Assembly: GCA_041650835.1 (NCBI GenBank)
Contig: JBAZKL010000003.1
Location: 99,682 to 163,681 of the forward strand
Direction of reading: 5' to 3'
Source of the DNA: Candidatus Omnitrophota bacterium
GTDB lineage: Bacteria > Omnitrophota > Gorgyraeia > Gygaellales > Profunditerraquicolaceae
Length of the DNA stretch: 64,000 nt
Positions 2,718 through 57,901 of this stretch are shown here, in pieces. The translations under genes were made by a program, and so were the position numbers. How positions within the stretch are numbered: position 1 is the first letter of the stretch; the number at the start of each line of letters is the position of its first letter. The notes under the pieces were generated by a model. It did no database searches and was not told the DNA's origin. It saw only the letters and a list, made by a program, of their open reading frames with translations.

Positions 2718-2726
2718 ATTAAAATC

Positions 2727-2799
2727 GCTGGCGTAGCTCAGTTGGTAGAGCAGCGCTTTCGTAAAGCGCGGGTCGGAGGTTCAATTCCTCTCGCCAGCT
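2727..2799 (+). tRNA. tRNA-Thr (anticodon CGU)
   Basis: A cloverleaf can be drawn by eye. The acceptor stem is GCTGGCG/CGCCAGC, the D-arm AGCTCAGTTGGTAGAGC, the anticodon stem-loop GCGCT-TTCGTAA-AGCGC (anticodon CGT), and the T-arm GGAGGTTCAATTCCTC. The discriminator is T and no CCA is encoded. Confidence 0.85.
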
Positions 2800-2825
2800 T
2801 TTTTCTACCTATCCGCGTATTCAAC

Positions 2826-4088
2826 ATGGCAAAATTCACCCATATACTCAGCAACCGTAATTTCTTTCTCTTATGGATGGGACAGATCATCTCTCAATTA
2901 GGCGACAGGCTTGGACAAATGGCATTGATCGCCTTTGTCTATTTACGAACGCCCGGATCTTCTTTTGAAATAGCCAAAACCCTTTCTTTCACTATTTTGC
3001 CGGTGTTTTTGATCGGCCCGCTTGCCGGCGTATACGTTGACCGTTGGAACAGGCGTAAAACCATGTACTTTTGCGATTTTATACGAGCGGCATTAGTGGT
3101 AACCATTCCCGCCTTCCTTTTTTATAGTAGAAATTTGAGCTGGATCTACTGTATTATATTCATTATCTTCTCCATAGGGCGTTTTTTTGTACCGGCGAAA
3201 CTGTCCGTCATACCGGAGGTCGTTGAGGAAAAAGACCTCTTAATTGCCAACTCCCTGATCAATACGACCGGCATGATCGCGGCGATCCTGGGATTCGGGA
3301 TCAGCGGTGTTATCGTTGAATGGCTTGGGGCAAAAAGCGGTTTTTATTTAGATTCCTTGAGCTTCCTGGTCTCAGGGCTCTTGATCTTTGCCATTGTGAA
3401 AAAACACGGCGGAGGCTCCGCTTCCAGGAAAACAGGCGATACTGCGCTGCTGCATATCAGGAAATCGGTATTGCACGAAATTAAAGACGGCATCCTCTAC
3501 TTTATAAAAGAAAAGGATATCCGCTTCACCGCGGGCATCATGTTTATTTTATGGGCCGCGCTGGGAGCGGTGTATGTCGTCATCATTGTTTTTGTCCAGG
3601 AAACTCTCCATTCAGCGACAAAAGACCTGGGCCTTTTGATCATGTTCCTGGGGATCGGATTATTCCTCGGCTCTCTTGCCTACGGCCGGTTCGGCCACAA
3701 GATCTCTCATTATAAAACGATCTTTTCCGCTTTGATCTTAAGCGGGCTTATGGTCATACTCTTTGCATTAGGGATCAACCGTTACCCCTTTTTCTCAGTC
3801 GCCGCTACGCTTTCATTGATTTTAGGGCTGAGCATTGCCCCGATCATGATAGCTACAAACACCATTATTCATAAAGTAAGCCAAAATCATATGCTGGGAA
3901 AGATATTCAGCTCATTAGAGATCATCATGCACCTGGGATTCTTATTATTCATGTTTTTAAGCAGCATCCTCGCGGAAAAGATCCCGCCGTTATATATTCT
4001 TGTCTTTGTAGGAAGCATTATCAGTATCATCGGGATAATCAATCTCATCCTTAACAGGCGAATCCCCTGGCTCAATGGTATTTCCTAA
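2826..4088 (+). CDS. MFS transporter
   Basis: The track ORF 2637..4088 begins at a GTG that would read through the tRNA. The first ATG downstream of the tRNA (2826, MAKFTHILSNRNFF...) gives a ~420 aa protein with ~12 predicted TM helices and an MFS-like G-x-L-x-D-R-x-G-R-R motif (GPLAGVYVDRWNRRK). Confidence 0.75.
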   Translation: MAKFTHILSNRNFFLLWMGQIISQLGDRLGQMALIAFVYLRTPGSSFEIAKTLSFTILPVFLIGPLAGVYVDRWNRRKTMYFCDFIRAALVVTIPAFLFYSRNLSWIYCIIFIIFSIGRFFVPAKLSVIPEVVEEKDLLIANSLINTTGMIAAILGFGISGVIVEWLGAKSGFYLDSLSFLVSGLLIFAIVKKHGGGSASRKTGDTALLHIRKSVLHEIKDGILYFIKEKDIRFTAGIMFILWAALGAVYVVIIVFVQETLHSATKDLGLLIMFLGIGLFLGSLAYGRFGHKISHYKTIFSALILSGLMVILFALGINRYPFFSVAATLSLILGLSIAPIMIATNTIIHKVSQNHMLGKIFSSLEIIMHLGFLLFMFLSSILAEKIPPLYILVFVGSIISIIGIINLILNRRIPWLNGIS

Positions 4089-25913: not shown

Positions 25914-26522
25914 ATGAAAGATGAAATGGACATCCTCAGGGAGATGGGAACGATCTCAGCCGGACAGGGCAGTATCGCCCTTTCGGAAATAATCGGGAGA
26001 AAGATAAACCTTAAAGTCCCCGCCCTGACGTTTGTCTCCGGCACCGACATACTTAACCGTTTCAGGGAAAACCAGATCGTGGTCAGTATTTTAGGGAACC
26101 TGCTGACCGGCCTTGAAGGGAAGATCTTATTCCTGCTTGACGAAAAAAGCGCTTATAAATTGATCGACATGTGCTACGGCAGGAAACCCGACGAAAAACA
26201 ATGCGGGGTATTCACCGAAATGGGGATGTCGCTGATGAAAGAAGTGGGAAACGTGGTGATTTCTTCTTTTGTCGGGGCCTTAAGCATTCTTTTGAAATCC
26301 TTGATCATCCCCTCCATCCCGACACTGGTAAACGGCCCGATCAAGCAGATACTGAACATGATACTGTCTTCTGATGACGAATATGTCCTTTTTATAGAAA
26401 CAACCTTTGAAGAGCCTCAACAGAATATCACCGGATGTTTTTACCTGGTATTGACCCCGCAAACAGTCCAGTTTATCCAGACCGCGTGTAAAAAAATGCT
26501 TGAAAACATTAATCAAAGCTAA
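25914..26522 (+). CDS. CheC/CheX-family protein (divergent)
   Basis: 202 aa. The first CheC active-site repeat is degenerate ([14 protein letters not shown], with N replaced by T). The second retains S-x3-E-x2-N (SLMKEVGN). Confidence 0.55.
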
Positions 26523-26524: not shown

Positions 26525-27487
26525 ATGAATGAGAGCAAGAACGAAAATACAATATTGATCGTCAGCGCTGACCCTCAGAATATTAGCTTCTTATCGGAAC
26601 TCTTAAGCGGAGAAGGATATAAGGTCAAAGAATGCTCGACCCAGACGGGAGCGAAAGAAATCCTGCTGCAAGAGCAATTTAACCTGGTTATCGCTGATTT
26701 CGAAGCCAACCAGATGAACGGCATTGAGATCTGTAAATTTATCCGCAGTAATTACCGTATTCGCCACATCAGCGTCATTATGCTCATGAATTCAAAAGAC
26801 CCCCTGAACAAGATCAAAGGCATTTACGCGGGAGCGGATGATTATATTGAGACGCCTTTCGACCCGGGAGAATTATTAGTCCGGATAAAAGCGTCACTCG
26901 TGCGGCTGACCAGGGATTTAGATGCCAACCCTTTGACCAAACTTCCCGGCAACGTTTCAGTGATGAAAGAGCTCGAAGAGCGGGTAAAGACTAATGTTCC
27001 GCTGGCGGTCGGATATGTCGACTTAAACAAATTCAAGGAATTTAACGACCGCTACGGATTTGAACGCGGAGACACGATCATCTCGCATACCGCGGTCACT
27101 ATCATGAATGCTTTAGAGAAACACGGCTCGCCGACCGATTTCCTCGGGCATATCGGGGGTGATGATTTTATTTTCATCTCTACCCCGGCTTGTGTCGATA
27201 CAATCTGTAAACAGATCATTTCCAACTTTGACAAAACGGTCACCTCGTATTATGAACAAGAAGACCTTGCCAATGGTTATATTATCGCGCGCAACAGAAA
27301 AGGCGAAATGACCAAGATCCCTCTTCTGAGTATTTCCATCGGGGTTACTACCAATGAACACCTTAAGTTTACCCACATTGCCGCTATTATACAGAACGCT
27401 ACAGAATTAAAGCATTTTGCCAAAACCTACGGCGGAAGCATCTACTTAAAAGACAGGCGACAGAGAACCGACGCCAACCCTTCTTAA
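26525..27487 (+). CDS. Response-regulator receiver fused to a GGDEF domain with a non-canonical GGDDF motif
   Basis: 320 aa. The REC domain (LVIADFEA) carries the conserved Lys position as Thr (DDYIETPF). The GGDEF domain shows [27 protein letters not shown] and [10 protein letters not shown]. Confidence 0.75.
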
Positions 27488-27586: not shown

Positions 27587-27886
27587 TTACAAAGTATTCA
27601 TGATGGTGTTGATCTTTTCAAACATAACACCTACTTCATGCGAGGCATGCTTTGTCGATTCTTTTACCCAAACAACCTTGCCTTCGACAAAATAGGTGCC
27701 GAACTGCGGAGTAACCCTGAACTCTCCCGTCACCTTACTTCCGACAGGAACTGTTTCATTAAGAAAGACCCTCATCCCGCCGCTGCTCAGATCCGCAATA
27801 GGGACTTCCTTTTTTTCATGACCCTTGCCGAATGTTGCCTTATTATTCTCTATATTCCAGCGGCTATATTTTCTTCTCTCGTCCAA
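27587..27886 (-). CDS. PilZ-domain protein (c-di-GMP receptor)
   Basis: 99 aa. It has an RxxxR motif (RRKYSRW) and a DxSxGG motif (DLSSGGMRV). Confidence 0.8.
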   Translation of the reverse strand: MDERRKYSRWNIENNKATFGKGHEKKEVPIADLSSGGMRVFLNETVPVGSKVTGEFRVTPQFGTYFVEGKVVWVKESTKHASHEVGVMFEKINTIMNTL

Positions 27887-41412: not shown

Positions 41413-43560
41413 TTAAACTCTATCCTCAAACAATATCTGAACCCTAGCCCCTTCAGTTAAAGGCGTCACAAATCCCGCAGGGCTATCATTAACCAGGATC
41501 CTGATCTTTTTCCCAAAGCCCTTGTAAGGATCAAAGTCAATATACTTGAATATATCGGAAAGCAGGATCTGTCTTTTCTTTACGTAATAGACCTTTATAT
41601 CCGCGCCATCGATCAAGAATTCATCAAGTTTGACCTGCTGGCCGTTCATAAAGGCCTGCACCGCCTCAAAGGCCATATCAATATCTTTACCGTCTACGGT
41701 CACATGTATCGTATCATGCATTTTAGGCAAGTCAATAATATCTTTGATCCGGTAATAGGTCGGGGTATCCGCGACAAATTCCAGGAAATCATTTTCCTTC
41801 AATTCAGCATCCAAGCCGGTCAATTGCCCATTAAGCCTCAGCGTAAAATTCTGCTGGGTCAATATCCGCGGGGCCTCATTGACATTAACCAGGATCTGGC
41901 GTTCAGACAAATTATCCATGCCGATACCCTGAAACTCCAAAAGATCGCGAACCCGGGGGCCAATCGTTTCAATAACAGCGCGGTCGGGCACCATTGCTTC
42001 CGCAGCGCGCCGGATACCGTTCACCAAAACAGGGGCGTTGAATTTCACCTGCTGACGGTTAAATATTACGGAAACCGCCTGAGGGGCGACAACTTCCTGC
42101 AAACGAACACACCCGTCAACGCCGTCAACGGCTTCAACAAAGGTGAGGGAATCCCCATCTTCTACTTGATCAGCGAGAGAATTAACCGGGTTACCGTTTA
42201 AACTTACCGTTGCTGAGCCGCCGAGGCTACCTTTAAAAATCCGCAGCTCCCCATTGACTTCAGCCGTCAAAGACAAACCGGGGCGGGGAAACAGCTTCTT
42301 GTTCACAATCACCCCTGATGCCGTCAATACGGCCATGATATCTTTTTTTTGCTGAAAATCCAGCATCCGTAACGGCCGGCCGTTGACCGTAACATTAATA
42401 AAACGCAATCCTAAAGACTGCATCGTCATGAGCGTAATACCTATGGGAGTTATGGTTTCCGGCCCCTTGAGCTTCCCGGTAAGGTCATGGACACTCTTGA
42501 TCATATGCGGCAGGCGTACGCCAACCTTGTGAGGGGCGATCCCAAAGCCTTTCGCAAGCTCCTGGACCAGGTCAAACGTCTGGCTTGCCCCTCCGACAAC
42601 AACAACAGCTTCGGGAGGCCCTTCATTCAACGCAAGGCCGGCCTGAGCGATCGATGCCGCTAATTTGTTAACGGCAGGTAACAGGTTTTTCTTAAGGGTG
42701 AAAATATCGATACGCTGAGGCTTTCCCCAAATATCTTCATAGGCGACCATGACATCGTGATCCAGGGAGCGCTTGATCCGTTCCGCGGAAGAGAAATCCA
42801 CCAGCAAAACCTTGGAAATATATTCCGTGATCTCATCACCCGCTTCGGGGACCATGCCGTAGGCGAAAACAAACCCGCCCTTGGTCAAGGCCAGATCAGA
42901 CGTTCCGGCACCGATATCAATAAGGACGATATTAAGGCTGCGCATCTCCGGGGGGACAATAGCATTGAGAGCGGCAATAGGCTCAAGGGTCATATTAATC
43001 GCCTCAAGCCCGGCCTTTTCCAACACGGCGAACATGCTGTCTAAAACTACGCGCGGCAAGAATGTCGCAATAACCTCGACACAGATCATTTTCCCGCGAT
43101 GGCCCCGGAGGCTGGAGATCCGGTTATTATCCAGCTCGTAATAAACAGGACTGTAGCCGACGCAATAAAATTCAGAGAGCTTGTTCCCCGAATTAGAAAC
43201 GATCGCCTCGATAGCTTCCAACTCCAGGTCACGCACGATCGCCGGAGTGATCTCCTGCTCCGTGCCAAGTTCTTTGGAAACCTTACTTTTATGCGCGGCC
43301 AGATTTCTCCCGGCGACCGCTACCCCGACTTGCCTGAGCTTCCTGCCCAGGCGCGATTCAAGGCTTTCTTTTATCTTAACGACGGTCTTGACGACCTCTT
43401 CAATGCTATGGATCTGCCCGTCGAACATCGGGCGCGCCGCATGTTCCCGGACCTCCACATCGACGATCTCGACATGCTCATCCTGCTGACGGGCAACAAT
43501 CCCCATCACCTTGCGTGTCCCGATATCCAACGCAAATATTTCCCGCGCCATAGGAATCAT
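41413..43560 (-). CDS. Actin-like ATPase (FtsA/PilM/EutJ superfamily) N-terminal half fused to a C-terminal array of 4-5 small ThiS/MoaD-like (beta-grasp) repeats
   Basis: 715 aa. The N-terminal ~370 aa carry ASKHA motifs: FALDIGTRKV (phosphate-1), LIDIGAGTSDLAL (phosphate-2) and VVVGGASQ (adenosine). The C-terminus repeats a V/L-x-V/L-N-G...L..GD.I.F/V pattern (VTVNGRPL; SLNGNPVNSLADQVEDGDSLTFV; RLNGQLTGLDAELKENDFLEFV; MNGQQVKLDEFLIDGADIKVYYV; LVNDSPAGFVTPLTEGARVQILF). Its start overlaps the upstream cheC by 4 bp (ATGA). Confidence 0.6.
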   Translation of the reverse strand: MIPMAREIFALDIGTRKVMGIVARQQDEHVEIVDVEVREHAARPMFDGQIHSIEEVVKTVVKIKESLESRLGRKLRQVGVAVAGRNLAAHKSKVSKELGTEQEITPAIVRDLELEAIEAIVSNSGNKLSEFYCVGYSPVYYELDNNRISSLRGHRGKMICVEVIATFLPRVVLDSMFAVLEKAGLEAINMTLEPIAALNAIVPPEMRSLNIVLIDIGAGTSDLALTKGGFVFAYGMVPEAGDEITEYISKVLLVDFSSAERIKRSLDHDVMVAYEDIWGKPQRIDIFTLKKNLLPAVNKLAASIAQAGLALNEGPPEAVVVVGGASQTFDLVQELAKGFGIAPHKVGVRLPHMIKSVHDLTGKLKGPETITPIGITLMTMQSLGLRFINVTVNGRPLRMLDFQQKKDIMAVLTASGVIVNKKLFPRPGLSLTAEVNGELRIFKGSLGGSATVSLNGNPVNSLADQVEDGDSLTFVEAVDGVDGCVRLQEVVAPQAVSVIFNRQQVKFNAPVLVNGIRRAAEAMVPDRAVIETIGPRVRDLLEFQGIGMDNLSERQILVNVNEAPRILTQQNFTLRLNGQLTGLDAELKENDFLEFVADTPTYYRIKDIIDLPKMHDTIHVTVDGKDIDMAFEAVQAFMNGQQVKLDEFLIDGADIKVYYVKKRQILLSDIFKYIDFDPYKGFGKKIRILVNDSPAGFVTPLTEGARVQILFEDRV

Positions 43561-44177
43561 GTTTGATTTATACTAAGGATCTTATGCACGCTTTCCTGCG
43601 CCAATAAGAAAAGGACGAAGACATTCAACTCGACATCTTCGATAAAAAGACGGTTCTCGATCGGCAGGATATACCCGGCATCGCCCTTATGCAGCCCGGC
43701 GATCAAGTGACGGACCAAACGAGCCATCGTATCCATGTGGATCTGATTTACCGACGGGACTAATTTATACAGCTTCAAGAACTCAGTCACCGCGTTCAAG
43801 TAGGAACAACAGAGGATATTAGAACTTTCGGAGAGGGCGGAAGCATCCGCAAGATTAAAAAGCTGGCTGGTCCCGGCTTTCCGGCGCGCGAGAATATCGA
43901 TCATTGAAAGCGCGCTCTTGAGCGAGAACAAAACCAGCATATCACCGGTTAAAGACCCCAAAATATTCACGCTGACCGCCATGCCTATTTCATGGGGGTC
44001 GGATAAGAATTCGGCGCTTAAAACCTCAGGGAATGAAAGGATCTTAACGCTCGGGACATTAATAAGCACTTTCTTGTTAAAAAGCTGGCCTAAAGCCGTG
44101 GCGGCATTACCCGCGCCGATATTGCCGATTTCTTTTAATACGTCTAATTGCTGAGATGTTAAATTCAATCCGCTCAT
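43557..44177 (-). CDS. cheC: CheC-family phosphatase
   Basis: 206 aa with a canonical first repeat (LDVLKEIGNIGAGNAATALGQL) and a second repeat (SALSESSNILCCSYLNAV). Confidence 0.85.
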   Translation of the reverse strand: MSGLNLTSQQLDVLKEIGNIGAGNAATALGQLFNKKVLINVPSVKILSFPEVLSAEFLSDPHEIGMAVSVNILGSLTGDMLVLFSLKSALSMIDILARRKAGTSQLFNLADASALSESSNILCCSYLNAVTEFLKLYKLVPSVNQIHMDTMARLVRHLIAGLHKGDAGYILPIENRLFIEDVELNVFVLFLLAQESVHKILSINQT

Positions 44178-44189
44178 TTTTACCTTTGC

Positions 44190-46184
44190 CTAACGCAGGC
44201 TCATCGTATCTAAAATCAACGCGACTTTCCCGTCACCCAGTATCGTCGCTCCCGCAATTCCCTTTGTCCGCTTGATCAACGCCCCTAAAGGCTTGACGAC
44301 AATATCTTGTTCGCCTAATACCTGGTTGACGACCAAACCGGCTGCTTTTGTGCCGTATTCAATAATGATCACGGACAAACTTGTATCTTCGGCGGCATCA
44401 AGCTGTAACGCCAGCTTCTTAATATCGAGTTCTTTCTGCAGCCGGATGATCGGGATGATCTCATCCCTGACCCGCGCCACTTCAAAATTCTGTATGATCC
44501 GGAGCTCTTCTTCCTGGATCTTAATGATCTCCCGGACGCTCATTAAGGGGATCGCAAAGACCTCGTTACCCACCTTGACCAGCATCGCCTTGATGATCGC
44601 CAACGTCAACGGCAGCGTCAGGATAAAACGGCTCCCCTTACCGGGCTCGGTTTCAAATTCAAGCCTGCCCCCCAGGGATTCGATCTTGGATTTAACGACA
44701 TCCAGCCCTACGCCCCTGCCTGAAATATCGGTTACTTTCTTGGCGGTCGAAAAGCCGGGCAGCGTGATCAGGTCAAGGATCTTTTTTTCATCAAGGCCTA
44801 CGGCTTCTGCTTCCGTTATCAGTCCTTTCGTAAGAGCAACGTTCTTGACTGTCGTGAAATTAACGCCCCTGCCGTCATCGGCTATCTCAATGAAGATCTG
44901 GCCTTTCTGCCTGCTGACCTGAATAAGCAATTTGGCGTTCGGCTTCTTGCCGGCAGCGCTGCGCTCCTCGGGGTTTTCGATACCATGATCAATAGCATTG
45001 CGTATCAAATGCACCAGCGGGTCGCTCATTTCATCAAGGACCACGCGGTCCAATTCGATCTCACTCCCGCTGATCTCCAGCTCCACCTGTTTATTCTGCT
45101 TCCGGGCCAGGTCCCTGACCATGCGCGGAAAAGTATCCAGGATATAAGCGACCGGTAATAACCGCGTCTGCATGATCTCATCTTGCAGCGACGAAATAAG
45201 CCGGTCGAGCATCGAACTGACATCTTCTAAAGGGTCTATCTTATACTGCTGAGAGATCTGCATCAGGCGGATCTTAGCGATCGCCAGCTCCCCCATCAAA
45301 TTCATGATCTTATCCAAACGTTCCACCGGCAGGCGCATACTCTGGATCTTCTTGACATAATGCTGGGCAGGAGCAGCGACGGTAGCGGATGAAGCAGCCC
45401 CCCCTGCTACGGCAGGACGGACATTGATTTCAAGGGAATTGATCTCCACCTTCTCGATCTCCGAGATAGTCAACAAGACCCGGTTGATCGTTTCTTGAGT
45501 CTCTTTTGTTTCCAGGATCAAGGTAAAGGTAAAATCAAATTTACCCTCTTTCAGGCAATCAAGCGCAGGCAAGGACTTAATGATCTCTCCGCTGCGTTTG
45601 ATATTATTAACCACCAGGTACGCGCGGGCCTCACGCATGACACAATCCTTGGAAATGATCACTTTGACCTTATAGATATTATGCTTGAGGTCCTTTGCCA
45701 GGTTTATTTTTTTAAGCTCTTCTTCGCTGAACTCAATATCCCCGTTCCCTTCTAAAACCTTCTTCGCCGGTCCGGTTGAACCCGAGGCAATTTTCTCCAC
45801 ATCGGGCTCCTGGGTAAAAATATCCTTCAAATCCTGCAAAAAAGGATTAATGTCGACCTTGGATTCCTGTTTGGCTTTTATTTCCTCGACTAATTTTTCC
45901 AGGAGGTCAACGGTAGCAAAAAGCTTATCGATGATCTCTGAGGTGACCTTCTTGCGCTGGCTGCGCAACTCATCCAGAAGGTTCTCCATATGGTGGGATA
46001 ACTGGGTAAGTTTATCAAACCCCATCGTTGCCGACATGCCTTTTAAGGTATGCATACAACGGAAGATCTCATTCAACGAACTTAAGTCGGCGGGATTTTC
46101 TTCAAGTTTAACCAGGCAATTACTGATAACGCTGAGGTATTCTTCGGACTCGGTAAGAAATAATTCTCTATAGCTATCCTGCAT
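44190..46184 (-). CDS. cheA: Chemotaxis histidine kinase CheA
   Basis: 664 aa. It has an HPt domain (FRCMHTLKGMSATMGF), a dimerisation domain, a HATPase_c domain (DDGRGV, GRGVGLDVV) and a C-terminal CheW-like domain. Confidence 0.9.
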   Translation of the reverse strand: MQDSYRELFLTESEEYLSVISNCLVKLEENPADLSSLNEIFRCMHTLKGMSATMGFDKLTQLSHHMENLLDELRSQRKKVTSEIIDKLFATVDLLEKLVEEIKAKQESKVDINPFLQDLKDIFTQEPDVEKIASGSTGPAKKVLEGNGDIEFSEEELKKINLAKDLKHNIYKVKVIISKDCVMREARAYLVVNNIKRSGEIIKSLPALDCLKEGKFDFTFTLILETKETQETINRVLLTISEIEKVEINSLEINVRPAVAGGAASSATVAAPAQHYVKKIQSMRLPVERLDKIMNLMGELAIAKIRLMQISQQYKIDPLEDVSSMLDRLISSLQDEIMQTRLLPVAYILDTFPRMVRDLARKQNKQVELEISGSEIELDRVVLDEMSDPLVHLIRNAIDHGIENPEERSAAGKKPNAKLLIQVSRQKGQIFIEIADDGRGVNFTTVKNVALTKGLITEAEAVGLDEKKILDLITLPGFSTAKKVTDISGRGVGLDVVKSKIESLGGRLEFETEPGKGSRFILTLPLTLAIIKAMLVKVGNEVFAIPLMSVREIIKIQEEELRIIQNFEVARVRDEIIPIIRLQKELDIKKLALQLDAAEDTSLSVIIIEYGTKAAGLVVNQVLGEQDIVVKPLGALIKRTKGIAGATILGDGKVALILDTMSLR

Positions 46185-46212
46185 AAAAGGCCTTCAAGGA
46201 TTGTGTATTGTA

Positions 46213-46821
46213 TTATTCGCCGATGCTTTTAATAATAAGCTCCAGCCCCACCGAGTTGGGGATCAGGAAAAAATGCCCCCGGATGGAAGCTTTGAGTTCC
46301 GTAAATTCAGATTCGATCAAAAGGGCAAACTCAGACGTACAACTTAATTCGATCAAAACATAATCAAGCATTGCCCCCGCCATATCAATGATCAACTCCG
46401 GCACAGTCGGGACCAACCCCAAGCCGACAAAGCTCCCTAACGCCCCCAAATAAGCGTTAGCGAGTATCACCCCTACTTCTTTTAACGCAGAACGCTCGAC
46501 ATCGCCGATAACGCTTCCGCCGGAAACCGGCTTGCCGGTCATCAGCCCCGCGAGGGCAAGCGCGTCTTTCTGGGAAAAGATAAAAATAATGGTGCTCGGT
46601 AAATCGCCGAGGACCCGTAAAACCAGGCCCGCGACAAGCTGATCATCGCCGCCGACGGCATTCGGGACCTCTTCAATAGGAAGAAACAATATCCGGGGGA
46701 CAACGATACTAATATTGGTATCGAGCAACTGCGATAGCGCGGTCGCGGCATTACCGGCACAAATATTGCCGATCTCCTTCATCGCGTCTTTTTGCTTATC
46801 GGTAAAAGCCATATCAGCCAT
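46213..46821 (-). CDS. cheC: CheC-family phosphatase
   Basis: 202 aa with a canonical first repeat (DAMKEIGNICAGNAATALSQLL). The second repeat has E but N replaced by V (SALKEVGV). Confidence 0.85.
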   Translation of the reverse strand: MADMAFTDKQKDAMKEIGNICAGNAATALSQLLDTNISIVVPRILFLPIEEVPNAVGGDDQLVAGLVLRVLGDLPSTIIFIFSQKDALALAGLMTGKPVSGGSVIGDVERSALKEVGVILANAYLGALGSFVGLGLVPTVPELIIDMAGAMLDYVLIELSCTSEFALLIESEFTELKASIRGHFFLIPNSVGLELIIKSIGE

Positions 46822-46869
46822 TTCGCTTACGCTCCTCCTGCGTTTACGTGCAAATAAATAAACGGTCGG

Positions 46870-47256
46870 TTACAATCTTTTTTCCGCCGGAAGCAAAGCA
46901 TTACGGACCGCCTCCACCAGCCGGATCGCCTGGACCGGCTTCGTCACAAAATCTTTGGCTCCCGCCCGTATCGCCTCCACAACCAACGACTGCTGCCCCA
47001 TAACCGAACAAATCAATATCTTCGCGTTCGGGTCGATTTTGACAATTTCCCTCACAGCGCCGATACCGTCAAGCTCTTCCATCATAGGCATGACAATATC
47101 CATAGTCACCAGATCAGGCTTGAACTCTTGATACTTCACAACCGCATCTTTGGCGTTCGAAGCTTCAACGCAGATCTCGTAACCTTCTGCGGTCAAGATC
47201 TTGGCGATCATTTGGCGCATAAAAACAGCATCATCAACTATCATAATTTTTGCCAT
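46870..47256 (-). CDS. cheY: Chemotaxis response regulator CheY (second copy, first gene of the operon)
   Basis: 128 aa single-domain receiver (IMIVDDAVFMRQMI, DLVTMDIVMP, KDFVTKPV). It is ~60% identical to the CheY at 39710..40081. Confidence 0.9.
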   Translation of the reverse strand: MAKIMIVDDAVFMRQMIAKILTAEGYEICVEASNAKDAVVKYQEFKPDLVTMDIVMPMMEELDGIGAVREIVKIDPNAKILICSVMGQQSLVVEAIRAGAKDFVTKPVQAIRLVEAVRNALLPAEKRL

Positions 47257-50761: not shown

Positions 50762-51856
50762 TTACGCGTACTCCCGCAGGCGGTCCACGATCACCTCGGA
50801 AGCAGTAAAAAGAAGCGGCTGCATAAGTTTATTCTCCCGGTTAAACGCCGGGTAACCGGTGATGAAGGATCCTGCAATAGTTTTATCGAACCGGGAAAGA
50901 ACAACATTTTCTCCCAACCCTTCACTTCTCTCCGTATGCGCGCGCAGGAGTAAACACGGTTTCCCTAAATAATACGCCTCCTCCTGGATACTGCCTCCAT
51001 CGGTCAAGACACACGCGCATTGTTCAAGCAAGAACATGAATTGGCGATGAGAAACAATAGCGCAGGATTCAATGTTACGCATACCCAAAACCTTCCGCAA
51101 CAGCCCGTATTTGTTCAACTGCCGCGCGGTCGGGGAGTGCTGCACAAAAACAACAGGCATATGCGAACAGGCGCGCTCAATGGTATCGACAATAAATTCA
51201 ATACGGCGCTTCGAGAAAATATTCTCAAACCGATGGAACGTTACCAGGCAATACCCGCGCTCCCGCGGTTGTATATTCCTGTTTCTTTCAAAGCTGAAGC
51301 GCGCCGTTTCAAACGATGTATTCGCCGGCATCAATACCGATTTATCCTTATACCCCATGCCGTCAAGATTTTGATACGCCCAGGCGGAGGGAGCGAAAAG
51401 GATATCGGAGAATTTCATCGCAATGAGCCTGACGATTTCTTCAGGAAAAGGCGCGTTCCAGTGAAAAGACCGTAATCCGGCCTCGATATGCGCGACCGGC
51501 AAACCGGCCCGCTTCGCCAGGTATAAACCTAAAAGCGTGGAAATTGTATCGCCATGCACCAGGCATATCCCGGATTTCCCGTGAAAAACATTCCTTTTTA
51601 TCCAGGCGGAAGAAGCGCTCCTCAAGAGCATCCCGCTCAACCAAATAAACGCCTGCGGCAGCGTAGCAATATCCCTTCCTCGCGACAAACACGCTCCAGG
51701 CTCATCCAAAGAAAACTCGGCACGCAACTCTTTGGAGAGTAACGCGTGTTGGCCAAGGTCGATGAGATTATACGGGATATTTTTTGCCTTCAGGCGCCAG
51801 AGGACCGGAGCCATTTTTACAACCTGGGCCTTTGTGCCGAGAGCGATATGGATCAT
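50762..51856 (-). CDS. UDP-N-acetylglucosamine 2-epimerase-like (WecB/MnaA family)
   Basis: Start set at MIHIALGTKAQVVKMAPV, which aligns with the canonical epimerase N-terminus (M..I..v.GTRPe.iKmaPl). It also has HIEAGLRS and the PFPEE motif. The track ORF extends to 51931 through the 18-bp tandem repeat, which would add an N/D/T-rich extension (NDTNDNNDTNDNNDT). Confidence 0.7.
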   Translation of the reverse strand: MIHIALGTKAQVVKMAPVLWRLKAKNIPYNLIDLGQHALLSKELRAEFSLDEPGACLSRGRDIATLPQAFIWLSGMLLRSASSAWIKRNVFHGKSGICLVHGDTISTLLGLYLAKRAGLPVAHIEAGLRSFHWNAPFPEEIVRLIAMKFSDILFAPSAWAYQNLDGMGYKDKSVLMPANTSFETARFSFERNRNIQPRERGYCLVTFHRFENIFSKRRIEFIVDTIERACSHMPVVFVQHSPTARQLNKYGLLRKVLGMRNIESCAIVSHRQFMFLLEQCACVLTDGGSIQEEAYYLGKPCLLLRAHTERSEGLGENVVLSRFDKTIAGSFITGYPAFNRENKLMQPLLFTASEVIVDRLREYA

Positions 51857-51901
51857 AGTATCGTTATTGTCGTTAGTATCGTTATTGTCGTTAGTATCGT
51901 T
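51857..51901. repeat. Tandem repeat of 18 bp x 2.5 copies, immediately 5' of the epimerase start codon
   Basis: AGTATCGTTATTGTCGTT, AGTATCGTTATTGTCGTT, AGTATCGTT. It is followed by degenerate AACGA-rich sequence up to 51945. Confidence 0.7.
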
Positions 51902-51945
51902 TAATATGTTCAACGAAAATAACGAATACAACGGAACTAACGATA

Positions 51946-53478
51946 TTACCCTTTTATTTTAAGCAACTCAGTATTACCAATGCGATGAACCGGAATGATC
52001 CGGTCCCTGTATTTCACAAGGAACTCCTTAAGGTAAACACTTGTATTATCCCAGGCCTCAGAAACAATAATATATCTGATATTATTCGCTAAAACTGCCT
52101 GCCATATAACATCGGGATCCCGGCTGAACGGATACACAACCGATTGATGTCCCGTGTATAAATACGTTACGGTCGGTTTACGTGAAATGATCCGCTCTTT
52201 ATCCTTCACCTGCGATGCTATCCACGCATTCATAGCCAGAAAATTCCGCGCGGGCGGATAATCGGTAATATACGACCAAAGCTTCAGGTACCTATCGCGC
52301 GGGGAGAACCACAGTGCACAGATCAACTGCGCCACCAGCGCCAACTGGAGCGCCTTTAAGGCTTTCTGCGGGCTGCGGGTAAAGAATCGGAAAACCGCGG
52401 TAAGGCCGAAAAAGTAAAAATAAAATACAAACGGCAAGATAGGAAATAAATATCTCCCGTCTTCATAAAAAGGCCAGAAAGAAATCAGGAAAAGATACGC
52501 CAGGAAATAGATAACAAATACCCGGCGGCCGCGCTTCATCCGGTCCCAAAGCCCTAACCAGACTATATAAAAAGATATGCACACCGCGGCATTATAAAAC
52601 GCCCCCGGAATAGGAAAAGGCAGGAGCGCTTCCTGGATATTCGAAGCGTAAAAATTTATCCCTTCAATAAAACGCAGCAATAAAAACCAGGGATTATCGG
52701 TGATCAAGCCGTGATGAGGGGCATAGCCGTCCAAAGGAAGGAACTGCTGGGCAAAAGAAGGAGCATACGGCGAAGCGACAGAGGCATTACGCAGCTGCCA
52801 AACAAGGAAGACAGGGACAAAAACAGCTGTAAGAAAAATGATCTTTTTCTTGACGGCTTTACCATCATCATTCTTTCTTTCCATCCATAAAGACAAGAGC
52901 ACGCTCAAGAATACCAGGACCCCGACATACCGGAAGAAATAAACCAGGAGCAAAGCCGCGGCAGTTAACCATCCTTCCTTATTAATGACCGTCGGCATTC
53001 TTTTGTAACGGGCGAAGGTTAAAAAGCTTATCCCTGAAAAAAACAATAACGGGACCTCGGTCAGGATTTTATGCGAATAACCCCAGTAGAGCCTGTTTAA
53101 GAACAAGAACGCCACAAGGAAAAAAGCCGCCGGATGCGGCAGGTCTTCTTTGAATAACCGGTAAAAGGCCACCAGCGTAAAGTAAGATAACAATAAAATG
53201 AGCACCTGCATCAGCCAGAAATTCCTGCCGAAGAAAAACAGTATAGCCGACAATAAAACGGAGATCCCCGGAGCTAAAACGGACAAAGGTTTACCCGGAT
53301 AATTTACCATCCGTAAACCATCGCCTTGAGCTAAAGATTCACCGATAATGATATACTGCGCGCTATCCCCGCCGGTATCAAGAAGTCCGGGAGCAACACA
53401 CCGAAGACCGCAATACCAGAAAATAACGCTCAATAAAATCCAATGCCAATTCCTGGCGGCCCTTTGCACAACGCTCAT
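51946..53478 (-). CDS. GT-C fold polytopic membrane glycosyltransferase (GT39 / ArnT-like)
   Basis: 510 aa with ~12 TM helices. It is translationally coupled (ATGA) to the upstream GT2 polyprenyl-phosphate sugar synthase. ArnC-ArnT-like pairing. Confidence 0.55.
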   Translation of the reverse strand: MSVVQRAARNWHWILLSVIFWYCGLRCVAPGLLDTGGDSAQYIIIGESLAQGDGLRMVNYPGKPLSVLAPGISVLLSAILFFFGRNFWLMQVLILLLSYFTLVAFYRLFKEDLPHPAAFFLVAFLFLNRLYWGYSHKILTEVPLLFFSGISFLTFARYKRMPTVINKEGWLTAAALLLVYFFRYVGVLVFLSVLLSLWMERKNDDGKAVKKKIIFLTAVFVPVFLVWQLRNASVASPYAPSFAQQFLPLDGYAPHHGLITDNPWFLLLRFIEGINFYASNIQEALLPFPIPGAFYNAAVCISFYIVWLGLWDRMKRGRRVFVIYFLAYLFLISFWPFYEDGRYLFPILPFVFYFYFFGLTAVFRFFTRSPQKALKALQLALVAQLICALWFSPRDRYLKLWSYITDYPPARNFLAMNAWIASQVKDKERIISRKPTVTYLYTGHQSVVYPFSRDPDVIWQAVLANNIRYIIVSEAWDNTSVYLKEFLVKYRDRIIPVHRIGNTELLKIKG

Positions 53479-54386
53479 TCTTCGGTCCTATCCATCCTCA
53501 ATTGATTGATCTGCTCGGAGACAAGGCCGAGCATAAATATGACCAGGGAAGCGGTAAAAAGCAAAACGCTCATATTGGTAAACCGGTGGCTGGAAATGAA
53601 GGTATAAACGTAATAAACAAATCCGCTTATAAAAAACACGGCACTGACGGGCATAAACACGCGCAGGGGGGAGAAAAAAACAGCGATGCGTATCATGATA
53701 AGCAAAAACCGCAGGCCGTCTTCCCAAACATTGATCTTGCTGACGCCGTGTTTACGCAGTCCGCCGGAAACAGGCACATACCTGATCGCCCTGCCGCTGT
53801 TTAAAAAGGCAAGCGTCAAAGTGGTGGGGGAAGAAAAACCGTTGGGAAGCAGGTAAATATATTTAACGGCGAACCTGCGCTTTATGGCGCGAAAGCCCGA
53901 AGTCAGGTCTTTTATGGGGAACCGGGTCACATAACCGGAAAAAAAGTTATAACAGCGGTTACCGAAATTGCGCAGGCCAAGCTTCGAAAAATCCCTGGCC
54001 CCGATGACCATATCAAAAGAGTCCAGTTCACGCAAGAGGCGCGGGATATCCCGGGGATTATGCTGTCCGTCGGCATCCATTAAAACCACTATATCCGCGG
54101 CAGAATTGCGCAATCCTGTTTTGATGCAGGCGCCGTTACCCATGCGATAGGGATGCCGGATAACGTGAGCTTGGGCTGCAGCGGCTTTTTCAGCGGTATG
54201 GTCCCCTGAAGCGTCATCAACCACCACTATCCGGCACGCCGGGCCTAAAGTTTCACGGACCTGCAGGATGACCGCAGCAATGGAACCAGCCTCATTATAC
54301 GCAGGCATAATAACTTCCACAGTCTCTTCTTCCATACGCGCCTTTCCCCTTATACCGGAACAAAACACCTCAAATCCGGCACACAA
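53475..54386 (-). CDS. GT2 polyprenyl-phosphate glycosyltransferase (DPM1/ArnC/GtrB-like)
   Basis: 303 aa. It has IVVVDDASGDHT and LMDADGQH (DxD) motifs and C-terminal TM helices. Confidence 0.85.
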   Translation of the reverse strand: MCAGFEVFCSGIRGKARMEEETVEVIMPAYNEAGSIAAVILQVRETLGPACRIVVVDDASGDHTAEKAAAAQAHVIRHPYRMGNGACIKTGLRNSAADIVVLMDADGQHNPRDIPRLLRELDSFDMVIGARDFSKLGLRNFGNRCYNFFSGYVTRFPIKDLTSGFRAIKRRFAVKYIYLLPNGFSSPTTLTLAFLNSGRAIRYVPVSGGLRKHGVSKINVWEDGLRFLLIMIRIAVFFSPLRVFMPVSAVFFISGFVYYVYTFISSHRFTNMSVLLFTASLVIFMLGLVSEQINQLRMDRTEE

Positions 54387-54465
54387 AACACATATATTAT
54401 TGTAACAAAGAATCCAAAAAAACCTATTATTTTCTCCTGGATTTTGCTATAATACTCTTACTCAA

Positions 54466-55422
54466 ATGAAAGAAAATAAAAGAATAAAGATCGCTATCAT
54501 CGTCGAAGACCACCGCCTCCAGGACTATATTGTACTTTTACTGGTAGGGGAAGGCTATGAGGTCAAAGCGTATTCTTCGCAAAGCGACGCCTTGGAAAAC
54601 CTCGAAAAAGAGACAGTCGACCTTATTATCTCCGAGTTCCAATCGCCCAACATCAACGGCCTGGACATCTGCAAAGTCTTACGGAAGAATTTCATCTATA
54701 ACCTTATCCCCATGTTCTTCCTTATTCCCGATAAAGCCCCGTTGAATGCGGCCCGGCTCATTTACGCGGGAGCCGATGACTATATCAAGAAATCATTGAT
54801 CGAAGAAGAATTGTTCCTCAAGGTCAAATTAAACCTCTACCGCAAATCACGCCATCAGGATATCGATAACATCACCCGGCTTCCCGGGCAATCATATTTA
54901 CTGCGGGAGCTACAAAAACGTATCGAGTTCAAGGAATTATTCGCCGTATCGTATATCGACCTGACCAAATTCAAGGAATTCAACCACCGCTACGGATTTG
55001 AGCGGGGCAATGCCGTGATGCAGTATACCGCTTCGCTTATCCACAACACTATGCGCCAAAAAGGCGCGATTTCCGACTTTCTTGCCAAAACCGGCAGCAA
55101 CGACTTTATCATGATCACCTACCCGGAAAATGTCGATGAAATCGTGAACAAGATCATTAAAGAATTTGACACCGATATCCCCTCTTTTTACGATGAAGAA
55201 GACAAAAAGAACGGTTTTATTACGATTAAGGACCGAAACGGCGAAATACAAAGATCACCGTTCTTAAAGATCCACATCGGAGTCGTTATCAACGAATATT
55301 TCCCGCTCTTCTCTCCTACCCGGATCGTTCAGATCGCCAGTGAAGTTAAGGACCTCGCCCAGAAGAACGCCGATAAAAGCGTGTATATTAAAGAGGACCG
55401 CAAGCATTATATTATCTCTTAA
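54466..55422 (+). CDS. Pseudo-receiver fused to a degenerate GGDEF-like domain
   Basis: 318 aa, paralogous to 26525..27487 (RLPGQ, IDLTKFKEFNHRYGFERGN). At the receiver phospho-acceptor position Asp is replaced by Glu (DLIISEF). The GG(D/E)EF motif reads TGSNDF. Confidence 0.7.
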   Translation: MKENKRIKIAIIVEDHRLQDYIVLLLVGEGYEVKAYSSQSDALENLEKETVDLIISEFQSPNINGLDICKVLRKNFIYNLIPMFFLIPDKAPLNAARLIYAGADDYIKKSLIEEELFLKVKLNLYRKSRHQDIDNITRLPGQSYLLRELQKRIEFKELFAVSYIDLTKFKEFNHRYGFERGNAVMQYTASLIHNTMRQKGAISDFLAKTGSNDFIMITYPENVDEIVNKIIKEFDTDIPSFYDEEDKKNGFITIKDRNGEIQRSPFLKIHIGVVINEYFPLFSPTRIVQIASEVKDLAQKNADKSVYIKEDRKHYIIS

Positions 55423-55428
55423 GTAAAG

Positions 55429-57441
55429 TTATTGAGCGGTTTTTTTCTCTTGAGCGGAAATTTCTTGTATCGTGGAGAGAAAATCGGCATTGACCGGGTA
55501 TCCCAGAGTAAGGGCTCGACGCGCATGGAAGCGCGCAAGGTGCCCGCGCGGAGGCTCCAGAGACCCGTAAATAACAGCAAGATTATTATGCGCCTCAGCG
55601 GAATCAGGGTTAAGTATAAGCGCTTCTTTCAGATGCCGTAAAGCCCGCAGGTCGGCATTACGCGCATAACAGGTACCTAACGCGTATTGTGAAAAATAGT
55701 ATCCGGGATTCAAGCGCACCGACTTTTCGTACGCGGTGATCGCAACGGTGAGATCTCCGAGCTCCTCACAAGCCTGACCTAAACCATAATAACCCAGATA
55801 TGAATCGGGGTCAGCTTTTATTGCCGAAAGAAAGTGCTCTTTGGCGCGCGCGGGATCATTTTCCAGGAGGCAAAGCTGCCCGAGGCCGACGTACATTTCA
55901 GACGCCGCCGGATTAATACGCAAACCCTCTTCCCAGCGATGGTGAGCCTCCTGAGCCCTGCCCATTGCCAGATAGATCCTGCCCAGAAAATTATAAATAT
56001 GGAAATTATTATTATCGATCCCTTTTGCCTGAAGCAGTAACCGCTCTGCGTCGGCCAGGCGGTTTTCTTTTTCCGCGACATACGCCAGATTGATCCTGCC
56101 GGTGACCTGATTCTCAATAGTGTTGGATAAGACAAGCGACTTTCCAATAAGGGCCTTTGCTTTACTATAGTCACCCTCGTTTAAATACTCAACGCCCAGA
56201 TTATGCAAGGCAATGGTTGATGCGGGTTCAGTTTTTAGAACAGCTTTCCAGAGACGCGTTGCGCTTGACCATTCGTAATTCCTCATCCATACCAGGATAA
56301 TGAAAATACCCAGCACGCAGGCATACAGGTACGGAATGACCTGATTCCAGCGCCGATACAGCCGATCGAGTGATAAAGCCGCAATAAAATACAGGCCGAT
56401 CGAGCCGCAATAAAAATGGTGCTCCGCCGCAACAATGTTAAGGACCGCGTAAAATTTCGGCAGCTGGCAGATCACATACCATGCCAGCCCAAAGCTTACC
56501 CAGGGCTGTTTTTTACGCAACACCAGGATCATAACGATAAGTATGACGATACCTACGATAGACAAGAACGCCGCGGGCTCATAAACCGAGGTAAGCGAAG
56601 GAAAACTATGGTGTATTGATAACGGATAGGGAAAAAGAAAAAGCCTTAAGGAAAAAAATAACACCGCCGCCTGGGTAAGGGCATTCGCGGAAAAACTTCT
56701 CAAAGGACTGGCTAAGGGAGCCAATATCCCGGCACTGCTGCCGATCATAAAAAAGCGGTATTGCCAATACGCCACCGACAAAAAGGCCAAACCGATATAA
56801 AGAACACGCCGGCGCAGAAGGCACTGCAACAACGGCTCACCGGGATGAACGACGAGGAGATCATAGGCAAGGACCAAGAGGCCGAAGACTAAGGCGCTTT
56901 CTTTTGTTAAGAGCGCGCACAGATACATAAGCAAAACCAGCGCATTCTTGTGCTTCAAGAGGAAGATCATGCCCGCGAGGATAAAAAAAGTCACCAACAG
57001 ATCGGAACGGCAGGTAATGTAACTTACCGCCTGAGTATTGAGCGGATGGCAGACAAAAAGTATCGTTACGCCTAAGCGGACGGCAAAGGCAAGGTCTTTT
57101 TTAAGATACTTAATTATCTGGAACAGCAAAACCGCATTTAAGAAATGTATCAAGACATTGATACAATGGTACCCAAAAGGCTTAAGCCCGCTAAAAAAAT
57201 AATTAAAGCTGAAGGTGATCATCAATAACGGGCGAAGCATCCCTTTTCCGACATTAGTTTCAGAAGTATATGTCCCCTGAAAAAATAAAGGGATATAGCG
57301 GAAGCTTTTGATAAAAAGATTATGGACTATCGTGTGCAGGTCGTCAAAAATAAAGGGGTTCCCTAAAGAATTAAAATAGAGGACGCAGCAGAATAACGCG
57401 ATGAATAAAACAGCCGTTTTTTCCTTAAAACTTTCTCCCAT
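55429..57441 (-). CDS. TMTC-like membrane protein: N-terminal polytopic GT-C-like domain plus C-terminal TPR repeats
   Basis: 670 aa. The N-terminal ~400 aa have ~11 TM helices with a DD motif in the first loop (FIFDDLHTIVHN). The C-terminal ~270 aa carry 6-7 TPR repeats. Confidence 0.55.
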   Translation of the reverse strand: MGESFKEKTAVLFIALFCCVLYFNSLGNPFIFDDLHTIVHNLFIKSFRYIPLFFQGTYTSETNVGKGMLRPLLMITFSFNYFFSGLKPFGYHCINVLIHFLNAVLLFQIIKYLKKDLAFAVRLGVTILFVCHPLNTQAVSYITCRSDLLVTFFILAGMIFLLKHKNALVLLMYLCALLTKESALVFGLLVLAYDLLVVHPGEPLLQCLLRRRVLYIGLAFLSVAYWQYRFFMIGSSAGILAPLASPLRSFSANALTQAAVLFFSLRLFLFPYPLSIHHSFPSLTSVYEPAAFLSIVGIVILIVMILVLRKKQPWVSFGLAWYVICQLPKFYAVLNIVAAEHHFYCGSIGLYFIAALSLDRLYRRWNQVIPYLYACVLGIFIILVWMRNYEWSSATRLWKAVLKTEPASTIALHNLGVEYLNEGDYSKAKALIGKSLVLSNTIENQVTGRINLAYVAEKENRLADAERLLLQAKGIDNNNFHIYNFLGRIYLAMGRAQEAHHRWEEGLRINPAASEMYVGLGQLCLLENDPARAKEHFLSAIKADPDSYLGYYGLGQACEELGDLTVAITAYEKSVRLNPGYYFSQYALGTCYARNADLRALRHLKEALILNPDSAEAHNNLAVIYGSLEPPRGHLARFHARRALTLGYPVNADFLSTIQEISAQEKKTAQ

Positions 57442-57523: not shown

Positions 57524-57901
57524 TTATAACCCGTGATCATGATCCCGCAGTACGCCTGTGGTATTGCTGTACAAAGCCAACCCTGTAGAATCATAAACAC
57601 TGGCCCTTCTCGGGCAGGTAGGTACCGCTCCGACCAGAAATGGTTCTGCGTGACGGTTAGACGCCGTACCCAAAGAAGCGATCGATACCGGGAAGCCGTT
57701 ATTATCCATACGGTTACGAGCGGCTGATTTAGCATAAAAAGCTGAGATCGCGCTCCTTAAAGAACCGATGTTCCCCTGGCATGCTGCTTGATCAGCATCT
57801 TCTTTCAAACTAACAAAACGAGGAATTGCAACTGCCGCTAAAATACCTATGATAACAATGACCATTACCAATTCAATAAGCGTGAAGCCTTTCTTATTCA
57901 T
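57524..57901 (-). CDS. Type IV pilin / T2SS major pseudopilin (prepilin-type N-terminal methylation domain)
   Basis: 125 aa. It has a class III signal peptide and conserved N-terminus (MNKKGFTLIELVMVIVIIGILAAVAIPRF), with Glu at +5. A GGAGG RBS is present and it is followed by the strong terminator. Confidence 0.85.
   Translation of the reverse strand: MNKKGFTLIELVMVIVIIGILAAVAIPRFVSLKEDADQAACQGNIGSLRSAISAFYAKSAARNRMDNNGFPVSIASLGTASNRHAEPFLVGAVPTCPRRASVYDSTGLALYSNTTGVLRDHDHGL

Follow-up and report, generated by a model that had tools for sequence, protein, structure and literature searches.

A receiver-GGDEF protein with two eroded catalytic sites beside the type IV pilin genes of Omnitrophota, and its possible use as a non-catalytic adaptor

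This report concerns one gene in a stretch of 64,000 nucleotides from a Candidatus Omnitrophota bacterium (NCBI GenBank assembly GCA_041650835.1, contig JBAZKL010000003.1, positions 99,682 to 163,681 of the forward strand); this whole stretch is called the window, and its own numbering is used throughout. The open reading frame (ORF) 54466..55422 on the plus strand, whose product is referred to as the target, encodes a receiver (REC) domain, a stalk helix and a GGDEF fold. From the sequence alone, the original prediction had described it as a pseudo-receiver joined to a pseudo-GGDEF domain, and as a more eroded paralog of the product of 26525..27487 (plus strand), which is referred to as the paralog. 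The features of the target are as follows.

54466..55422, plus strand: target gene, an ORF of 318 amino acids; pseudo-receiver/pseudo-GGDEF protein of clade A of the Omnitrophota REC-GGDDF lineage
54487..54825, plus strand: REC domain, residues 8-120, with E57, I87 and a retained K109; its beta3-alpha3 segment DLIISEFQSPNINGLDICK is conserved specifically in clade A
54634..54636, plus strand: codon of Glu57, at the position of the phospho-acceptor Asp (translation 'IISEFQS')
54790..54855, plus strand: alpha5/stalk helix, residues 109-130 (DSSP on the AlphaFold2 model), joining REC to the GGDEF-like domain and followed by an invariant 'LPG' turn
54862..55401, plus strand: GGDEF-fold domain (residues 133-312) whose catalytic residues are eroded
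55093..55107, plus strand: GSNDF (G210-F214) at the position of the GG(D/E)EF half-site, normally GGDDF in this family
Residues about 241-265 of the target: family-specific insertion of a helix and a beta-hairpin, FYDEEDKKNGFITIKDRNGEIQRSP

Pfam places Response_reg (PF00072) at residues 11-120 (E 2.8e-14) and GGDEF (PF00990) at residues 133-233 (E 1.1e-13), the latter over profile positions 3-109 of 161, i.e. the first two thirds. The scan of the 318 residues returned nothing beyond these two domains, neither PAS nor EAL, and there is no room for more. Since the target has no DNA-binding domain, the gene regulation that had been proposed for it is unlikely, and action through protein contacts is more plausible. 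NCBIfam gave only sub-threshold matches (PleD at 65.8 bits against a cutoff of 474, DgcR at 63.5 against 500) and no specific family name. The AlphaFold2 model, built with 63 homologues as input (predicted local distance difference test score, pLDDT, 89.6), consists of a receiver of five strand/helix pairs, joined by a stalk helix of 22 residues to a GGDEF fold. In Foldseek its full-length top matches are WspR (3bre), DgcR (6zxb) and PleD, with E values of 1e-21 to 1e-16, and comparison with isolated domains gives template modelling (TM) scores of 0.92-0.94 for receivers and 0.7-0.77 for GGDEF domains. Among solved structures, the closest relative is the Leptospira cyclase DgcR (6zxm), followed by PleD, WspR and TpbB.

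The gene is under purifying selection; it is maintained and not decaying. The ratio of nonsynonymous to synonymous substitution rates (dN/dS) is 0.086 against a relative of 98% identity (L089), with 27 nucleotide but only 7 amino-acid differences; the ratio is usable for this relative only, as synonymous sites are saturated against the more distant ones. All 36 orthologues are full-length, at 42-98% identity and free of truncations. The loss of key catalytic residues from both domains, described below, is what would be expected of a decaying pseudogene or a chance ORF, but this explanation is ruled out by the dN/dS value, the intact orthologues, the confident model and a conserved promoter-like element, and its probability is practically negligible.

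Residues were mapped through hidden Markov model (HMM) alignments of the target to the active cyclases DgcR (6zxm), TpbB/YfiN and DgcB. Positions are given in CheY numbering for the receiver and in PleD numbering for the cyclase domain; the latter was carried over through the TpbB and DgcR alignments and the PleD sequence. In the receiver, E57 aligns with the phospho-Asp of DgcR ('VVLLDWELP'), the switch residue Thr87 is replaced by Ile87 and Pro110 by Ser; D15 and K109 are kept. The acidic pair E14-D15 is not a defect, because the active DgcR also has E-D at this place. A canonical phosphorylatable receiver is thus represented by its acidic pair and Lys, and both Asp57 and the switch Thr/Ser are missing. 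Glu is not a phosphotransfer acceptor in the canonical mechanism.

In the cyclase domain, the segment 'KTGSNDF' (55087-55107) lies opposite 'RFGGEEF' of DgcR, and in the TpbB/YfiN alignment 'ARLGGDEF' stands against 'AKTGSNDF' and FKEINDRLGHAAGD against FKEFNHRYGFERGN. The half-site [G/A/S]G[D/E]E[F/Y] of active cyclases is therefore absent, with G369 changed to Ser, E370 to Asn and E371 to Asp. Further positions lost are D336 (His174), D344 (Asn182) and K442 (Gln299), so that the guanine-recognition pair N335 + D344 is incomplete, N173 being present and D344 replaced by N182. The I-site RxxD reads AISD (A201-I-S-D204), and the R446 position is Ser throughout the family. Kept are D327 (D165), K332 (K170) and N335 (N173). 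Alignment with active diguanylate cyclases, proposed as the check on the original prediction, thus bears it out: the catalytic residues are not intact (D57E, T87I, GSNDF, D344N, K442Q, no RxxD), and these losses add to the two, E57 and GSNDF, on which the pseudo-receiver/pseudo-GGDEF description had been based. As judged from these alignments, the target would not be phosphorylated at the canonical site, nor could it plausibly make cyclic di-GMP (c-di-GMP).

Searching the sequence database gave 63 relatives, almost all of them from metagenome-assembled genomes (MAGs) of Omnitrophota, with some records labelled Planctomycetes. An alignment, a neighbour-joining (NJ) tree and a motif table sort the lineage into three groups, A, B and C, and the clade statistics compare 37 clade A with 26 clade B sequences. 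Clade A consists of the target and its 36 orthologues and forms an Omnitrophota clade that is sister to clade C; the target shares with it at least 42% full-length identity, the lack of Thr87, the motif 'SxF.S.NINGL', the tail 'KERRKxYPF' and convergence on a pilin gene. A scan of genome contigs with the clade A profile mostly recovered generic receivers, about 10 of 80 loci being family members and most of these orthologues of the paralog; one locus with a frameshift (L018) was left out of the motif calls.

The two clades differ sharply at the positions named above. The phospho-site is Asp in all 26 clade B sequences, as against 20 Glu, 10 Asp, 3 Ile, 2 Ala, 1 Ser and 1 Val in clade A; Thr or Ser at position 87 is found in 0/37 clade A and 25/26 clade B sequences, Gly at the first position of the half-site motif in 5/37 and 26/26, and Lys at K442 in 4/37 and 26/26. 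Glu57 had been taken for a classic phosphomimetic residue. Because the residue varies among the orthologues, all of which lack the switch Thr, the site appears relaxed rather than held 'on', and Glu57 is better read, on the evidence of the alignment, as one of several residues tolerated there than as a phosphomimetic kept by selection. Within clade A, basal members still carry GGDDF (L009/P0070, already with E57 and L87) or GADDF (P0035/P0036), and crown members carry QTNDF, PQNDF, QINEF, QNDDF or Q-DGF; TH-HF and YMDRF also occur, and there is no shared alternative motif.

The NJ tree and the motif table give an order of losses, in which the basal members retain GGDDF or GADDF and the crown members do not. 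The target lineage goes back to an old duplication within an Omnitrophota lineage of chemosensory-linked REC-GGDDF cyclases. The switch Thr87 went first, a loss common to clades A and C, after which the phospho-Asp was free to vary, and the half-site eroded last, along the series GGDDF, GADDF and Q/G-x-[DN]-[DE]-F.

The wider family from which this lineage departs was sampled by an exhaustive profile search, in which 145 of the best 150 representatives could be aligned full-length; they are close to clade B. Their receivers are canonical (D57 in 132/145, T/S87 in 134/145, the Lys-Pro pair in 127/145), and their cyclase domains carry a uniform but non-textbook signature: 'LPGN', D-x-[DN], K, N-D, G-[FY], D344, H-[IV]-[GA]-G-D-D-F and K442, with no RxxD. 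Ahead of the last strands, these members also have the helix and beta-hairpin insertion, which is about 15-20 residues long. In clade B the genes lie in FIST - GAF-histidine kinase - REC-GGDEF operons. Counted at E <= 1e-30, the REC-linked GGDEF family is very large, with 19,069 cluster representatives, generic REC-GGDEF proteins included. Members of the same large family (P0037-P0213; loci L006 and L007) have G[FY] for GH and Ser for R446, and are often found in FIST - GAF-histidine kinase operons.

A relation of the GGDDF family to Cas10/mCpol-like 'GGDD' polymerases was considered and rejected: Foldseek and phmmer match diguanylate cyclases only, and the active clades have retained the guanine-binding residues N335 and D344, so the family is a GGDEF variant. 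A search of the literature for 'GGDDF' turned up one demonstration of activity, for GSU1937, and several unassessed cases, but nothing on this Omnitrophota family; the product and regulation of the large GGDDF family look unstudied. GSU1937 is active with GGDDF and inactive with GADDF (PMC8835794). It resembles the parent family of the target in its GGDDF motif, which that family conserves strictly as H[IV][GA]GDDF and which the target has lost; it differs in being a Hypr enzyme with Ser at D344, a position at which the family keeps Asp.

It is in this light that continued enzymatic activity of the target, through an unusual motif or with a changed product, and/or continued phosphorylation, must be judged. 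The activity of GSU1937 with a non-canonical GGDDF, the departure of the whole family from the textbook motif and the retention of the metal-binding Asp D165 could be taken in its favor. However, in GSNDF the second Gly is gone and so is the first acidic residue, GADDF already inactivates GSU1937, the orthologues conserve no alternative motif, K442 is gone in 33/37 clade A sequences, and the Glu at the phospho-site is no canonical acceptor. We regard this explanation as very improbable.

The paralog illustrates a less eroded state of the same architecture. It shares 41% identity with the target over 305 residues (BLASTP E 2e-84), which confirms the paralogy, and with D57 and GGDDF in place it is indeed the less eroded of the two. 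The gene and its neighbors are listed here.

26525..27487, plus strand: paralog, clade C; atypical REC (A14, D57, M87, T109) and intact GGDDF domain
25914..26522, plus strand: CheC-like gene immediately upstream of the paralog
27587..27886, minus strand: PilZ gene adjoining the paralog

Clade C as a whole keeps GGDDF and D57, has Thr87 replaced (by M, I or V) and lacks the first acidic Asp. The module CheC-like - REC-GGDDF - PilZ, with PilZ oppositely oriented, recurs in Omnitrophota loci L010-L014, where the order is always the same. In L018 a REC-GGDDF gene closes a CheY-CheY-CheA-CheC operon, in an arrangement resembling that of Wsp.

Catalysis by a GGDEF cyclase requires that a dimer bring two half-sites together, as seen in the DgcR, WspR and PleD structures, and a further possibility is that the target pairs with its active paralog via the stalk and REC, forming half-dead dimers that damp or localize c-di-GMP synthesis near the pilus. 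The stalk and the 'LPG' turn are conserved across the clades (L116, L124, R126, P140, G141), with R126, P140 and G141 invariant in the 63 sequences. The sister clades A and C also co-occur in this genome and in GCA_005239725.1 (SBBM01), where the clade A sequence P0017 lies on SBBM01000019 and the orthologue of the paralog, L011, on SBBM01000010. Against such heterodimers, the target and paralog genes are 27 kb apart in separate transcription units, stalk residues differ substantially (L118/L122 in clade A, A118/M122 in clade B), and the surface conserved in clade A is on the REC beta3-alpha3 face and not on the stalk. We consider this pairing decidedly improbable.

That surface emerges from a shift of constraint between the clades. 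Mean pairwise identity in the A-site strand-turn is 0.50 in clade A against 0.86 in clade B, and in the metal/base-binding segment 0.51 against 0.80; in the receiver beta3-alpha3/alpha3 region the relation is reversed, with 0.75 in clade A and 0.55 in clade B. The residues conserved specifically in clade A cluster in 'DLIISEFQSPNINGLDICKxLRK' and in the C-terminal tail 'KERRKxYPF', and a candidate surface for partner contacts is SEFQSPNINGLDICK. Such a pattern is expected of a pseudoenzyme that keeps its scaffold and gains or keeps a protein-contact surface. Within the insertion, Y242, G250, R257 and G259 are conserved in all clades.

Conserved residues of this kind could also serve a ligand. 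The target might be a non-catalytic receptor of GTP, c-di-GMP or another nucleotide, which binds through the remnant A-site or the insertion and relays nucleotide levels to the pilus machinery, much as CdgA, PopA and PelD work by way of their I-sites. D165, K170 and N173 (PleD D327, K332, N335) are kept, and the insertion residues are nearly invariant in the degenerate and the active clades alike. Receptors of c-di-GMP are also encoded in the clusters, a PilZ protein near the paralog and MshEN-PilZ and PilZ proteins in the pilus clusters of L003 and L005, and CdgA of Bdellovibrio, with GVNEF, binds c-di-GMP (PMC3271064). Against this, RxxD is absent (AISD), with no Arg at its place in 37/37 clade A sequences and none seen across the family, and the phosphate- and metal-binding positions (GG, E370, K442, R446) are gone. 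The A-site positions vary freely in the orthologues, which is unexpected for a conserved ligand pocket, and FimX of Acinetobacter baylyi works without nucleotide binding (PMC12139848). Arg at the I-site position 201 occurs in 0/63 aligned sequences and is not among the commonest variants in the 145 representatives. As no member of the family has RxxD, binding of c-di-GMP at the canonical I-site is predicted to be negative, and the missing I-site speaks against a mode of binding like that of CdgA, PopA and PelD. A nucleotide-sensing role is, on balance, unlikely.

The genomic setting of the target is highly conserved. In the window, it is the sole plus-strand gene in a 22-kb block of minus-strand genes, which run in the order minor pilins, PilC, PilMN, PilO and pilin, a tetratricopeptide repeat (TPR) protein, the target, a GT2 glycosyltransferase, a 510-amino-acid membrane protein and an epimerase, continuing with GT4, two methyltransferases, an LPG_synthase_TM protein and then CheY, CheC, CheA-CheW, CheC and a 715-amino-acid protein. 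The neighboring features that matter here are the following.

57524..57901, minus strand: type IV pilin with N-terminal methylation motif, a neighbor in every context with downstream DNA
55429..57441, minus strand: 670-amino-acid membrane protein with C-terminal TPR repeats, convergent with the target; syntenic in L001, L003, L004, L089 and L091
54445..54453, plus strand: extended -10-like element TGcTATAAT, 12 nucleotides before the target ATG (sequence inspection)
53475..54386, minus strand: GT2 glycosyltransferase of the polyprenyl-phosphate-sugar synthase type, divergent from the target; best NCBIfam matches AglJ, PpgS and ArnC
41413..47256, minus strand: chemosensory operon of CheY (46870..47256), CheC, CheA-CheW (CheA at 44190..46184), CheC and the FtsA/PilM-like 715-amino-acid protein, conserved beside clade A orthologues

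This placement recurs in all seven contexts with downstream DNA, i.e. the window and orthologues at 98, 69, 62, 55, 53 and 42% identity: in each, the gene is a lone plus-strand unit converging on the pilin and type IV pilus assembly genes, and the TPR/GT-C-like protein is usually present. Two downstream layouts are found, either TPR/GT-C-like protein, pilin and PilO/PilMN/PilC, or pilin, MshEN-PilZ, histidine kinase, REC and PilC. The stop codons of the target and TPR genes are 6 nucleotides apart in the window, and in the orthologue contexts (including L001, L003, L004, L089 and L091) the gene converges to within 2-8 nucleotides on the TPR or the pilin gene, the exception being the 42% orthologue, where the pilin starts about 100 nucleotides downstream. 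A scan of the junction 55420..55431 for terminators found no hairpin in either direction. Because the tight convergence recurs, the target and TPR transcripts probably overlap in antisense. In most contexts the CheY-CheC-CheA-CheC operon is found upstream. The window has, farther in that direction, the remaining genes of a chemosensory pathway, those for two methyl-accepting chemotaxis proteins, CheW, CheC/X, CheB, CheD and CheR, and the CheC - paralog - PilZ module.

On the 5' side of the target lies TTTGCTATAAT, which also precedes the orthologues in L001 and L003; its distance from the start codon is 7-12 nucleotides in the window and in L003. In L005 there is a plain TATAAT, 9 nucleotides before the ATG. 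No Shine-Dalgarno sequence precedes the start codon in these upstream regions, and their sequence suggests that the target mRNA is leaderless or near-leaderless, with a predicted transcription start at about 54460. An 'AAAAA(A/G)CCTA' box is found about 25 nucleotides further upstream of the -10-like element (window 54445..54465; L001, L003, L005).

The original prediction had also tied the target to glycosylation and pilus genes. Its divergence from GT2 and its pilin neighbor hold, and the pilus genes are constant; a conserved link to the glycosylation operon does not hold, as GT2 is syntenic in 5/6 orthologue contexts, and the GT2 operon is absent from the sixth (L005, with the 42% orthologue P0036). 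The label GT-C could not be verified for the 510-amino-acid polytopic protein of this operon (51946..53478, minus strand), which has no match in Pfam (E <= 5), NCBIfam or the PDB. A relation to GT-C enzymes is found instead for the TPR protein 55429..57441: direct comparison of its N-terminal membrane domain with Pfam and the PDB gives no match, but distant homologues carry PMT_2, PMT or DUF1736, a relation of the PMT_2/TMTC type. A route from GT2 through GT-C to O-glycosylation of the pilin is plausible.

Several further observations concern these neighboring genes. The 715-amino-acid protein (41413..43560, minus strand) combines an FtsA/PilM-like actin-fold N-terminus with a ThiS/TGS-like (beta-grasp) C-terminal region. 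Its gene closes the CheY-CheC-CheA-CheC operon and has counterparts in L001 and L003; such a component is unusual for a chemosensory operon. In L003 (11416..13187) and L005 (9961..11733), genes for MshEN-PilZ, REC, PilZ and histidine-kinase proteins stand in place of PilO/PilMN, which puts several c-di-GMP receptor domains directly beside the dead cyclase and the pilin. In L089, the relative at 98% identity on contig Ga0376277_0022988, the region of GT2 and the 510-amino-acid protein (1497..3869) is called as four short genes of 172, 114, 366 and 132 amino acids, and the glycosylation genes there may be frameshifted or decaying, or the calls may reflect assembly errors; the target orthologue and pilin genes of L089 are intact. 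Finally, the 5' end of the epimerase ORF (51856..51943) holds perfect 18-bp tandem repeats in 2.6 copies, TAGTATCGTTATTGTCGT, and a second array of 9 bp. The repeats encode a stretch of NDTNDNNDTNDNND if the TTG start of the epimerase is used; the true start is probably a downstream Met ('MIHIALGTK'), which would leave the repeats in the intergenic spacer.

In addition to its own relatives, the target can be compared with several known systems. WspR, DgcR and PleD, its top structural and sequence matches, have the same REC-stalk-GGDEF architecture and fold, and its sister clade C is connected with a chemosensory pathway, in the way that WspR is part of Wsp; these enzymes, however, are activated by phosphorylation and possess D57, T/S87, GG(D/E)EF and RxxD, all four of which the target lacks. 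Receivers without the phospho-Asp, such as the plant pseudo-response regulators (PRRs) with Glu, FrzS and ChxR, keep the fold and function independently of phosphorylation; unlike in these proteins, the replacement residue in clade A is not fixed (E/D/A/I/S/V). Dead GGDEF domains are likewise reused as signaling modules in CdgA of Bdellovibrio, PopA of Caulobacter and PelD of Pseudomonas. PopA and PelD bind c-di-GMP via a retained RxxD I-site, and CdgA is linked to a pilus-associated hub. CdgA, at the prey-contact pole, also binds c-di-GMP via a retained RxxD (PMC3271064), which is missing in the target family.

The closest likeness in context is to FimX of P. aeruginosa, Xanthomonas and A. 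baylyi, which combines a degenerate REC with a degenerate GGDEF domain and is linked to type IV pili; the link of the target is by gene neighborhood, between a CheA operon and the pilus genes. FimX of A. baylyi binds neither c-di-GMP nor GTP and binds the CheA homologue ChpA to position pili (PMC12139848). In contrast to the target, FimX has PAS and EAL domains; in Pseudomonas and Xanthomonas it is the EAL domain that senses c-di-GMP. The two proteins are not detectably orthologous, the target coming from the GGDDF-type REC-GGDEF lineage in Omnitrophota.

Taking this analysis together, we favor the reading that the target is a phosphorylation-independent, non-catalytic and probably dimeric adaptor of the type IV pilus/chemosensory apparatus, to which we assign a probability of roughly 0.6. 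The adaptor would be constitutive and independent of any signal, and would contact other proteins of the type IV pilus apparatus or of the CheA/CheC/CheY control system, thereby resembling FimX acting on pili through PilB or ChpA. This mechanism is drawn from what selection now preserves, i.e. the fold, the stalk, the receiver beta3-alpha3/alpha3 surface, the helix and beta-hairpin insertion and the C-terminal tail.

Several observations weigh against the adaptor reading. D165, K170 and N173 of the target, and D344 in 27/37 clade A orthologues, are compatible with nucleotide binding without catalysis, and the conserved insertion (Y242, D246, G250, R257, G259), being common to the active clades, is a possible ligand site. 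With Asp at the phospho-site, 10/37 clade A members include some that may still take up phosphate even without Thr87. The grouping into clades comes from an NJ tree that carries no bootstrap values, and the only functional link of the target to pili is synteny.

A more far-reaching extension of the adaptor reading takes clades A and C together as one chemosensory output branch that is independent of phosphorylation. The beta3-alpha3 face would dock CheC-like proteins or CheA, clade C would make c-di-GMP for PilZ, and the dead clade A protein would tether the complex to the pilin, the candidate glycosylation enzymes and pilus assembly. This scheme is speculative and improbable; if true, such a branch would couple chemosensing directly to pilus biogenesis in host-associated nanobacteria.

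Dead GGDEF domains, aspartate-less receivers and their pilus-linked examples are already well known, and the category of adaptor or receptor to which the target would belong is not new. What this case contributes is a natural series for the death of a two-domain signaling enzyme, with the fold and a new conserved surface kept throughout, and a strictly conserved placement beside the pilin genes in Omnitrophota. The existence of such proteins calls for caution with genome-based cyclase counts in these MAGs, which overestimate the capacity for c-di-GMP synthesis. Omnitrophota are uncultured, and their pili are thought to be important for host attachment; the target is a concrete candidate for a link between the pilus and chemosensory clusters of these bacteria.

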